From Torpedo marmorata (Eukaryota): 64,000 nt of DNA. The translations under genes and the position numbers were made by a program. This document shows positions 40,566 to 43,482 of this stretch, piece after piece. The notes beneath the pieces were generated by a model, which was not told the DNA's origin, did no database searches, and saw only the letters and a list, made by a program, of their open reading frames with translations. Where the stretch lies: contig OZ360239.1 in assembly GCA_977017645.1 (NCBI GenBank), positions 44,640,001 to 44,704,000 on the forward strand, given 5' to 3'. Positions within the stretch are counted from its first letter, which is position 1. Each line of letters starts with the position of its first letter.

Positions 40566-40641
40566 AGTAGCCTGAATACGACTGGGATTGTCTGATCTCG
40601 GAAGCTAAGCAGGTACAGGACTGGTCAGTACTTGGAGGGGA
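40566..40641 (+). mobile_element. 5S rRNA-derived SINE (SINE3-type), 5' half of a split copy
   Basis: tagcctgaatacg...gtctgatctcggaagctaagcaggtacaggactggtcagtacttggagggga aligns to the 5' ~85 nt of 5S rRNA, including box A (AGCTAAGCAGG). Ends in the TSD. Confidence 0.88.
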
Positions 40642-42302
40642 AATGTAACATTCAAATTCCGTTCCCATTCATTCTTAATCCCCGTCATAGAAGCTACTCC
40701 GATTTCCAATAAATTATTATATACCGGTATACATGATGTTAATCCACATTGGAAAAAGAACCATATATTAAAAAGTAAATCGAGAAAATTAGAACTTAAA
40801 ATTCGAGGAAAATCTGAAATCTTAGACTGAACAAAATCTTTAATTTGTAAGTATCTAAAAAAAATGTCTGTTAGTAAGATTAAATTTATTGACCAATTGT
40901 TCGAAAGTGGCAAAACTATCTCGAATAAAAAGATCATTAAAACTATGAATTCCCAATCTATACCATTCCCTAAATCCTACATCCATCACAGAAGGCTGGA
41001 AGAGGTGATTATCTATAATAAGACTAGCCAGAGAAAAGCTATTAAATCCAAAAAAAAATTCTAAACTGTGCCCATATTCTCAACCTATATCTCAATGAGT
41101 TATTTTAACAAATGAAAATGGTAAAAAGGATCCTAAAATTGCTAACATAGATGTTTTTTTTGAAAACTTAAATTCCATTTCCACCCAGGATGGGCGATTC
41201 TGTAACTTATCAAAATGCAATAACAAAAGCAAATTACGAATATTAATCGCCCAATAATAAAATCTAAAATCTGGAAGTGATAATCCTCCATTCCTTTTAA
41301 TTTTTTGAAGATGGTATTTATTTATATGTGGATGTTTTCCCTGCCATATATATGAAGAAAGAATCGAATCCAATGAAATAAAAAAGGTTTTAGGAATAAA
41401 AATTGGTAAAGATTGGAAAAGATATAAAAATTTAGGCAAAATATTCATTTTAATCGAAATAATACGGCCCTTCATTGTAATTGATAAGGGTGACCAACCC
41501 GCTAATTGTAATTTAACATTATTAACTAATACCCAAAATGCTCTTGATCTAATTAACGCTTCATCTTTTTGTGCTGGACACTGTTTATTACAATTTAAAG
41601 TGGTACATAGAATTCATATGTCTAAACTTAAACGATCACCTTTTTACTCTGACATAGATCCATTGTGTGAGAGATGTAACATTTTTGAAGCTTCACTGAT
41701 ACATATGTTTTGGGAATGCCCCAATTTGGAGAGATTTTGGAAGGATATTTTTAAATCTTTATAATTGATTTTTAAGATTAATATTGAACCATGTCCTATA
41801 ATTGCTCTGTTTGGTTTTTCACGTGAACTTAACAAACATTTGTCTGCATCACAGGAAAAAGTTTTAGCTTTTTCCACGTTGATTGCCAGACGGGCAATTT
41901 TATTGAAATGGAAAGATGAGTTATCACCGACACACAGACAGTGGTTACTAGATGTAATGTCCTTTCTGAGTTTGGAGAAAATTAGATATAATATTAAAGA
42001 TAGAAAGTTTCCATTTTTAAAGATCTGGGGGCCATTCATTGAATACTATCATGATTGGAAGAATTAACAAAACTGACTATCCCGGGGACTCTCTGTCCGA
42101 TGCTTGGAGGTCGCTACAGGATCCATATCCTTTTTTACAATATCAAGGTAACCTTGCTTAGAGGGAGGGGTTAGAATAGATTAGTTATTAGTGTTTGTTT
42201 TTTTTTGTCTTTTTTTTCTTTCTTTTTATTTTATTTTCGTGATTTTTTTTTAAAGATAATTATAAGGAACTAGAGTTTTAACCTATATTAAGAATTTAGT
42301 TA

Positions 42303-43171
42303 AAACAAATTACAGGTCTTACATTTCCACAGAATCCTGATTTATTTTTATTAGGGAATGTGGAAGGAACTTGACCAAAGTTGAAGTTATCTACATATCA
42401 ATTGAAATTTGTAAAAATTGCTTTAGCAGTAGCAAAGAAGTGTATAGCAGTAACTTGGAAATCAGATACAAATTTAGGCATGGATAGATGGAATATAGAG
42501 ATGCGGAGTTGTATTCCATTGGAAAAAATAACATATAATATGAAAAAAAAAGGTAAAGGTTCCATTATTGTCACGTAATACTACATTTAGAATGTAACAT
42601 ACATGAAATTCTTTAATTTTTGTCTACTGTAAGGCAGACAGAGGGTCGCTATTTTGTCCAACGCCCCTCACAGAAACCTACAGCACCTGGTGTTCCTTGG
42701 CAGTCTCCCCTCCAAGTACTGACCAGTCCTGTGCCTGCTTAGCTTCCAAACAAATATGGGATATTTTTGCAAATTTGGCATCCATATATCCAATCATTAG
42801 GTACGAACATTTAAATGTGTTGCTCTACATCCTAGACCCTGTTGACTCTCTCAAATTTAAAGAAGAAATATTGTTGAATGCCACGCGTCAAATCGTGGAC
42901 CCAGCAGCGATCCGTGCAGATGTTTTTTTAATAAGTAAAACCAATGCCTTCCTTTCTGTTCTTTTCTTTTAGTTTTTAGTAAGGGGAGGGAATTAAAGTG
43001 AGGGGAAGGGTGGAGGGTGGGGTAGCAACATTATAGAGGGTGGGTTAAGGGATGGGTTAGATACACTGTAACGCAAATTATGTTTTTTATTTACTGGAAT
43101 TAATAATGTATATTACGTATGTTGTACTACTGTGAGAAAATTCAAAATTTAAAATAAAATATTTTAAAAAA
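42303..43171 (+). mobile_element. Second L1-clade 3' fragment nested in the 3'UTR of the first
   Basis: A different ORF2 C-terminus (KIALAVAKKCIAVTWKSD...IPLEKITYNM...IWHPY), with its own G-rich 3'UTR, aataaa and A tail. Probable TSD aagaattta(g/a)tta at 42290-42302 and 43172-43184. Confidence 0.78.
42552..42747 (-). mobile_element. Second copy of the 5S-derived SINE, 5'-truncated, antisense, inserted in the second L1
   Basis: Reverse complement reads ggaagctaagcaggcacaggactggtcagtacttggaggggagactgccaaggaacaccaggtgctgtaggtttctgtgagggg...aataatggaacctttacc. About 7 mismatches versus 43314-43482. Confidence 0.92.
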
Positions 43172-43313
43172 AAGAATTTAATTACGACAATTTACTTAGT
43201 TGGTTTTTTTTTATATACATGTATGAATACCAGCTGATTTTTTGAATGTTTTTCTTAATCTTGTTATTCTGTATACATGTTTATTATTGAAACTAAATAA
43301 AAATATTTTTAAA

Positions 43314-43482
43314 AGTACTTGGAGGGGAGACCGCCGAGGAACACCAAGTGCTGTAGGTTTCTGTGAGGGGCGCTGGACAAAGTAGCGACCCTCTGTCTGC
43401 CTTACGGTAGACAAAAATTAAAGAATTTCATGTATGTTACATTCTAAATGTAGTATTACGTGACAATAATGGAATCTTTACC
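43314..43482 (+). mobile_element. 5S rRNA-derived SINE, 3' half of the split copy (5S 3' end plus ~125-bp non-5S body/tail)
   Basis: agtacttggaggggagaccgccgaggaacaccaagtgctgtaggttt is the 5S 3' end. It is followed by a body shared with the copy at 42552-42747. Confidence 0.9.

Follow-up and report, generated by a model that had tools for sequence, protein, structure and literature searches.

Within the window (the whole 64,000-nucleotide stretch of Torpedo marmorata DNA that was analysed), the interval from 40566 to 43482 holds two copies of a short interspersed element (SINE) with a 5S rRNA-derived head and a 125-nt body, together with two L1 elements. SINE copy 1 lies on the plus strand in two halves. 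Its 5′ half (40568..40641, plus strand) is 5S-derived head with box A, the intermediate element and the start of box C; the first ~10 nt are absent (5′ border, ~40568). The 3′ half consists of the 3′ part of the 5S head (43314..43357, plus strand) and the body with its tail (43358..43482, plus strand). Folding placed three hairpins in the body, all on the plus strand: hairpin 1 at 43365..43393, hairpin 2 with a TTAC loop at 43395..43412, and hairpin 3 at 43427..43463, followed by the GACAATAA motif and an ACCTTT-type end. A 15-nt duplication (40627-40641 and 43314-43328) joins the two halves; its left copy (40627..40641, plus strand) and right copy (43314-43328) are the target-site duplication of the intervening element, L1-A. 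SINE copy 2 (42547..42747, minus strand) is 5′ truncated at head position 43 and has no clear duplication around it. The sequence-only reading had described two copies sharing a 5S head and a body, and both are present where it placed them.

L1-A has an inverted 5′ part of the twin-priming type (40642..41536, minus strand; right border approximate), a forward part with the end of ORF2, including a CCHC motif, and the start of the 3′-untranslated region (UTR) (41537..42302, plus strand), and the remaining 3′-UTR with an A-rich end (43185..43313, plus strand). The inverted part encodes an ORF2 fragment similar to residues 799 to 882 of human L1 ORF2p (PDB search; E, 7e-15), and the same segment is collinear and uninverted in relatives such as the copy at locus L166. 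A Pfam search gave no match for either L1 fragment. The second element, L1-B (42303..43171, plus strand), is 5′ truncated, lies within the 3′-UTR of L1-A, and is flanked by a 13-nt duplication with one mismatch (42290-42302 and 43172-43184); its insertion site is uninterrupted in other L1-A copies. SINE copy 2 lies inside the ORF2 end of L1-B. We considered whether L1-A is a Mutsu-type element that targets 5S sequences. Since none of the 29 other L1-A loci lay in a 5S gene or a SINE head, this candidate was rejected, and we concluded that L1-A is an L1 of the usual kind, 5′ inverted and without target specificity. The order of insertion is SINE copy 1, L1-A, L1-B, and SINE copy 2. Because L1-A lies in copy 1, L1-B in L1-A, and copy 2 in L1-B, the activities of the SINE and of L1 overlapped. 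Downstream, in the window from 44001 to 50000, G+C content and G skew climb strongly, up to 0.63 and 0.50, respectively; a LINE in antisense orientation or a repeat rich in G probably underlies the rise.

The antisense copy differs from the 3′ half of copy 1 at 7 of 169 aligned bases, and all of the differences are transitions, in agreement with the earlier claim. The same pair forms an inverted repeat of 174 nt at 95% identity, and the 5′ half and the antisense copy have 42 nt in common at 98%. Three departures from true 5S that the copies were said to share are real when measured against the host's own 5S gene: C67A, T84G, and T102C (hand-numbered on the alignment of head and host 5S). T84G lies in box C, at a place contacted by TFIIIA, and this change counts against the preferred reading given below. 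Rfam model RF00001 scored 25.8 and 24.1 bits on the two heads, below its cut-off of 38, and a search with Rfam at its cut-offs returned nothing in the window. Reduction of the polymerase III (Pol III) terminator to TTT, also proposed from the sequence, holds throughout the element, in which the longest run of T is 3 and no run of at least 4 occurs.

We compared the head with the host 5S genes, which form an array on contig C25; one 5S array was seen, and the 5S family search scored 47 candidates. By hand count, the head matches the host 5S gene at 93 of 115 positions (81%). The first 32 nt account for 13 of the 22 changes and the 48-nt control region for 6; in the latter (+50 to +97), 42 of 48 positions are retained, with one change within the core of box C. 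A full copy folds better than all of 200 shuffled sequences (z, -4.15), with the head in a 5S-like three-way shape that is closed, in the predicted fold, by a new 8-pair helix. The first 8 nt of the element (e.g., L090:1286-1293) are exactly reverse complementary to the 3′ strand of the 5S head, and their pairing with it restores a closing helix where 5S has helix I; the helix is 9 nt long in contigs of two other organisms. Compensatory changes in the head relative to 5S were considered and discarded, as most such letters are already present in the host 5S gene.

The family was then measured across the genome of 6.2 billion bases, in which the full 5S-headed form is 238 nt long. A search with the body gave 633 candidates on many contigs, so the element is not confined to this locus; the 40 that were scored were 99 to 100% identical, and the flanks of all inspected copies were unrelated to each other. 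A 23-nt tail pattern had 19,439 exact matches genome-wide (control, 0). Among the first 100 of these loci on contig C1, 73 were 5S headed, 9 were tRNA headed, and 18 were 5′ truncated, meaning that the head fell below the score threshold. Exact head-body junctions numbered 13,460 for the 5S form and 1,113 for the tRNA form; scaled by hand by the fraction of loci with exact junctions (43/73 and 6/9, respectively), these counts give estimates of ~23,000 5S-headed and ~1,700 tRNA-headed copies. Mean divergence from the family majority was 2.4% for the 5S form (n = 73) and 2.8% for the tRNA form (n = 30), values that lean low because both samples were selected by an exact pattern, even though the pattern itself was excluded from the count. 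The element ends in (ACCTTT)n, with 0 to 3 further ACCTTT units per copy. Target-site duplications of at least 7 nt were found around 1 of 43 full 5S-headed copies and 0 of 11 tRNA-headed copies, compared with 1.1% and 0% in mismatched controls. The genome-wide copies, their junctions and their low divergence support the proposal that the two copies derive from family masters of a young, dispersed 5S-headed SINE.

The family is not limited to Torpedo. It is present in sequencing runs of about ten coded organisms, and contigs from 4 of the coded runs extend over both head and body. At six places, the form common in organisms B and F has the letters of 5S and of the donor (the donor of the body is described below), and hence the SINE form of the Torpedo genome is derived. 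Two further observations concern relations among copies. Loci L212 and L213, 23 kb apart on contig C1, have identical SINE copies and flanks and represent a local duplication. Among 5S-headed copies, all four allele combinations occur at pairs of non-CpG diagnostic sites (e.g., 66, 20, 14, and 10 copies), and one 5S-type body site is found in 2 of 36 tRNA-headed copies, with 0 of 145 in the reverse direction. To judge from these sequences, the allele combinations and the site exchange suggest recombination among source elements.

Two features of the body had not been part of the sequence-only reading: it also forms the 3′ terminus of an older, non-coding repeat, and a tRNA-headed sister shares it. 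The sister carries the 125-nt body under a tRNA-Thr(TGT) head, which ARAGORN recognized in 12 of 16 loci submitted from a set of 30. Bodies of the 5S- and tRNA-headed forms agree at 120 of 124 positions (97%), and the sites at which they differ are near-fixed. Over its whole length, the body also aligns, at 86% identity, with the 3′ terminus of the older repeat, which is non-coding and ~850 nt long. Of 118 bases aligned between the body and the majority sequence of the closest donor subfamily, 101 are identical; donor copies differ by 7.3% from their own majority. This repeat is GC rich and has a fixed start, AA(A/G)ATGGCGGCG, in several copies; the one copy that we translated had no stop-free frame over 210 codons. 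A piece of it, at 81% identity, lies in the window at 32983-33080. Because the body is common to the 5S head, the tRNA-Thr head, and the ~850-nt repeat, we concluded that it is one tail module with three 5′ parts. The donor-like module begins 3 nt past the head, and there is consequently no room for a central domain. We consider it somewhat more probable that the 5S head came before the tRNA-Thr head than the reverse, because the 5S form in organisms B and F retains two donor states that are absent from the tRNA form and because the junction TTT fits the 3′ end of 5S.

Both hairpins named at the outset, together with the third hairpin in the tail, are part of the minimum-energy fold of the full copy, but RNAalifold, run on 22 mixed copies, favoured another pairing in the hairpin region and gave no compensatory pair. 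In hairpin 1, donor and SINE differ at two pairs (columns 9/46 and 18/37), each with both of its bases changed. These two changes count as two inherited events, and the structure on which they are scored was derived from these same sequences.

Four features place the element in the SINE3 class: a 5S head, a type 1 promoter, a uniform junction that is interspersed in the genome, and the lack of an internal terminator. Members of that class would also have a 3′ end in common with an autonomous LINE; the 3′ end of the Torpedo SINE is shared with the non-coding repeat, and its likeness to Rex1-type LINEs is at the level of motifs. Assignment to the DeuSINEs (zebrafish SINE3, AmnSINE1, and OS-SINE1) was rejected because there is no space for a Deu domain, a judgement made by layout rather than by Deu sequence. 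As described in PMC3747384 and PMC5499810, zebrafish SINE3-1 and AmnSINE1 are likewise non-autonomous, with an internal promoter in a 5S head and a LINE-type 3′ end; by comparison, the 238-nt Torpedo SINE is young and joins head and tail directly, with no central domain. Its tail is Rex1-like rather than CR1-like, a comparison made by description and not against the zebrafish SINE3 sequence. The salmonid OS-SINE1 is also a fish SINE with a 5S head, and its LINE tail, RSg-1, is shared with the tRNA-headed SlmI and HpaI (table of PMC3747384), but it has the Deu domain that the Torpedo SINE lacks. If RSg-1 is a Rex1 element, OS-SINE1 would be a precedent for the pairing of 5S with Rex1. A SINE paired with a Rex1 LINE is listed for Nematostella (SINE2-5_NV with Rex1-24_NV; PMC3747384); that SINE differs in having a tRNA head and a cnidarian host.

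Sister heads on a common 3′ part derived from a LINE are described for the springhare Ped-1 (5S) and Ped-2 (tRNA), whose body is a bipartite LINE derivative, and for HaSE3 (5S) and HaSE1 (tRNA) of Helicoverpa (PMC3747384, PMC5786205). According to these accounts, the partner of the Ped and HaSE SINEs is RTE/Bov-B, whereas the clade is likely Rex1 for the Torpedo SINE, which differs further in that its two bodies are 97% alike and its headless donor survives in the genome. Bov-A, RTESINE, RIME, and Vingi are similar, as outlined in PMC5786205, in that a protein-free LINE derivative gives the body and a template switch adds a small-RNA head; the main text of that paper names only RTE, Ingi, Vingi, and R2 as clades with bipartite derivatives, and Rex1 is absent from it.

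The SINE3 class and pairs of 5S- and tRNA-headed sisters are thus already known, and 5S-headed SINEs are less common than tRNA-headed ones. This analysis adds a donor that survives, copy counts for each of the two heads, and a bipartite reading with Rex1 that can be tested. In the open papers, which were the scope of the comparison, we found neither a description of the Torpedo 5S-headed SINE nor any 5S-headed SINE from a cartilaginous fish, and the family is probably undescribed. It is less probable, though a real possibility, that Repbase or Dfam already lists the family under the name of a ray or a shark. Automated repeat libraries would be expected to catch a family that is abundant and present in runs of some ten organisms; against this stand the silence of the open papers and two published tables, one in which the SINEs of cartilaginous fish are tRNA headed only (PMC3747384) and one with no entry for cartilaginous fish (PMC10946416).

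The partner LINE had been called identifiable from the tail. This was only partly right, because Rex1-type LINEs share the end motifs of the SINE but the exact partner was not found. At none of the first 100 tail-bearing loci did a Rex1 C-terminal frame run into the tail in the same orientation. Patterns designed for exclusion returned only SINE variants, truncations or the donor among the matches read (all 26 for one pattern, 30 of 63 and 30 of 230 for two others). The donor subfamily was also compared with its 30 best relatives, in which the similarity stopped within ~750 nt upstream, with no contiguous reverse transcriptase (RT). A tail profile run over 1.18 Mb of loci gave SINE and donor types only, apart from a weak Rex1-type end (E, 0.16).

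The similarity to Rex1 is one of motifs and of structure. LINEs of this genome with endonuclease (EN), RT, and a PF09004 end terminate in a hairpin, an A-run, GAAT(T/C)TC, GACAA(A)TAAA, and a short tandem repeat, and several PF09004-bearing families have the motif order of the SINE's own terminus. PF09004 at the C terminus is typical of Rex1, and the name Rex1 is given to these LINEs by this domain rather than by a tree. One full Rex1-type copy has EN and RT domains, and its family has a sharp 5′ border in 39 other copies that are 95 to 98% alike at the 5′ end. The donor starts with AA(G/A)ATGGCG, the same as this LINE, whose first 45 nt fold like hairpin 1 of the donor. When the two were aligned, that 45-nt segment was the best of 1,270 windows and was equalled by 1 of 3000 shuffles, the likeness having been noticed before it was tested. 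The SINE's own hairpin 1 matched the 5′ end of the LINE at chance level (557 and 175 of 3000 shuffles), and 3′ similarity to the one full Rex1-type LINE compared was no better than that of shuffles (934 and 547 of 3000). The tail repeats also differ (TTCTGA in the Rex1-type LINE, ACCTTT in the SINE). Since the SINE version of the hairpin and both 3′ comparisons were not significant, we regard the Rex1 link of the tail module, as read from these sequences, as likely only. Two of 234 SINE copies (L184, near position 1530, and L308), both 5′ truncated, directly follow an intact 3′ end, either that of a Rex1-type LINE or that of the ~850-nt repeat, an adjacency that fits, weakly, a template switch. 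In the window at 43930-44330 (plus strand), a degenerate 3′ end of a Rex1-type LINE was recognized by eye; it is missing from the tblastn list.

Lack of target-site duplications and a microsatellite tail also fit LINEs of the CR1 and L2 clades. A SINE3-class family moved by such a LINE would explain why an exact Rex1 partner is missing, and vertebrate SINE3 families are described as moved by the CR1 clade (Kojima 2020, PMC7245038). We consider this explanation improbable, however, because the order of the end motifs matches several PF09004-bearing LINE families of this genome and because the donor has the same start as the full Rex1-type LINE.

Our preferred reading, which we consider probable, is that of an abundant, young, and dispersed SINE composed of a 5S head and a 125-nt module, likely transcribed by Pol III and likely copied by Rex1; its structure, copy number, dispersal, lack of duplications, tRNA-Thr sister, and body origin from the ~850-nt repeat were observed directly. 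The 5S internal control region would drive Pol III transcription, which would read through the SINE because the TTTT terminator is gone. A Rex1-type reverse transcriptase may bind the structured 3′ module and prime at the short tandem tail. The family may have been born by a change of template during reverse transcription, from the ~850-nt RNA to 5S rRNA, and another such switch at a later time could have swapped the 5S and tRNA-Thr heads. Donor, 5S form, and tRNA form all persist with little divergence, and the form in two other organisms is nearer to 5S and to the donor. Hence, the birth of a SINE by capture and exchange of heads is traceable stepwise. Young copies could also serve as presence/absence markers for phylogeny.

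The module may itself be a bipartite Rex1 remnant, because the extreme 5′ hairpin of the LINE matches the first hairpin of the donor. We put forward only tentatively that a bipartite module of ~125 nt, made of the 5′-terminal hairpin of the LINE and a Rex1 3′ end, was re-headed three times in one lineage. It is as speculative that the three heads would then be a GC-rich, Pol II-type leader, the type 1 promoter of 5S, and the type 2 promoter of tRNA-Thr. If true, the bipartite reading would place Rex1 among the few LINE clades from which bipartite non-autonomous units and SINE bodies have arisen and would give a vertebrate SINE3 driven by Rex1. It would also provide a natural test of promoter type against copy success on one tail (~23,000 versus 1,700 copies).

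An alternative origin from a variant class of 5S genes, of which the copies would be scattered units or pseudogenes and the body the spacer, is very improbable and largely refuted: the head does still fold in a 5S-like three-way shape, and just one array was in view, with 47 candidates scored, but the body, also found behind a tRNA head and a non-coding leader, had no real match to the 30 units of that array (best E, 1.3), flanks were unrelated in all inspected copies, the 5′ truncations and variable tandem tail are marks of retroposition, and a pattern for a second type of 5S had 9 matches, 3 of them SINE copies. The copies did not show the tandem array, T-run terminator, and downstream spacer of a 5S rDNA unit or variant class, and the same 9 pattern matches led us to reject the idea that the head stems from a second class of 5S genes.

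These matches and the host array gave some minor observations. In SINE copies L270, L273, and L274, box C ends as in true 5S and not as in the rest of the family, which could mark either an older subfamily or gene conversion by 5S. At 4 of the 9 matches (L269, L271, L272, and L275, near locus position 1500), 5S sequence is followed by a tRNA-like SINE head, which we take to be HE1-like, and L272 and L275 have a common junction variant; these loci are possibly 5S and tRNA-SINE chimeras or a small composite family. In the host array, the 5S unit at L044 (G000:C25, ~86.2-86.6 Mb) is ~3.2 kb long and, by eye, contains part of an L1-like element in antisense orientation, a stretch resembling a tRNA, and another 5S copy, which is degenerate.
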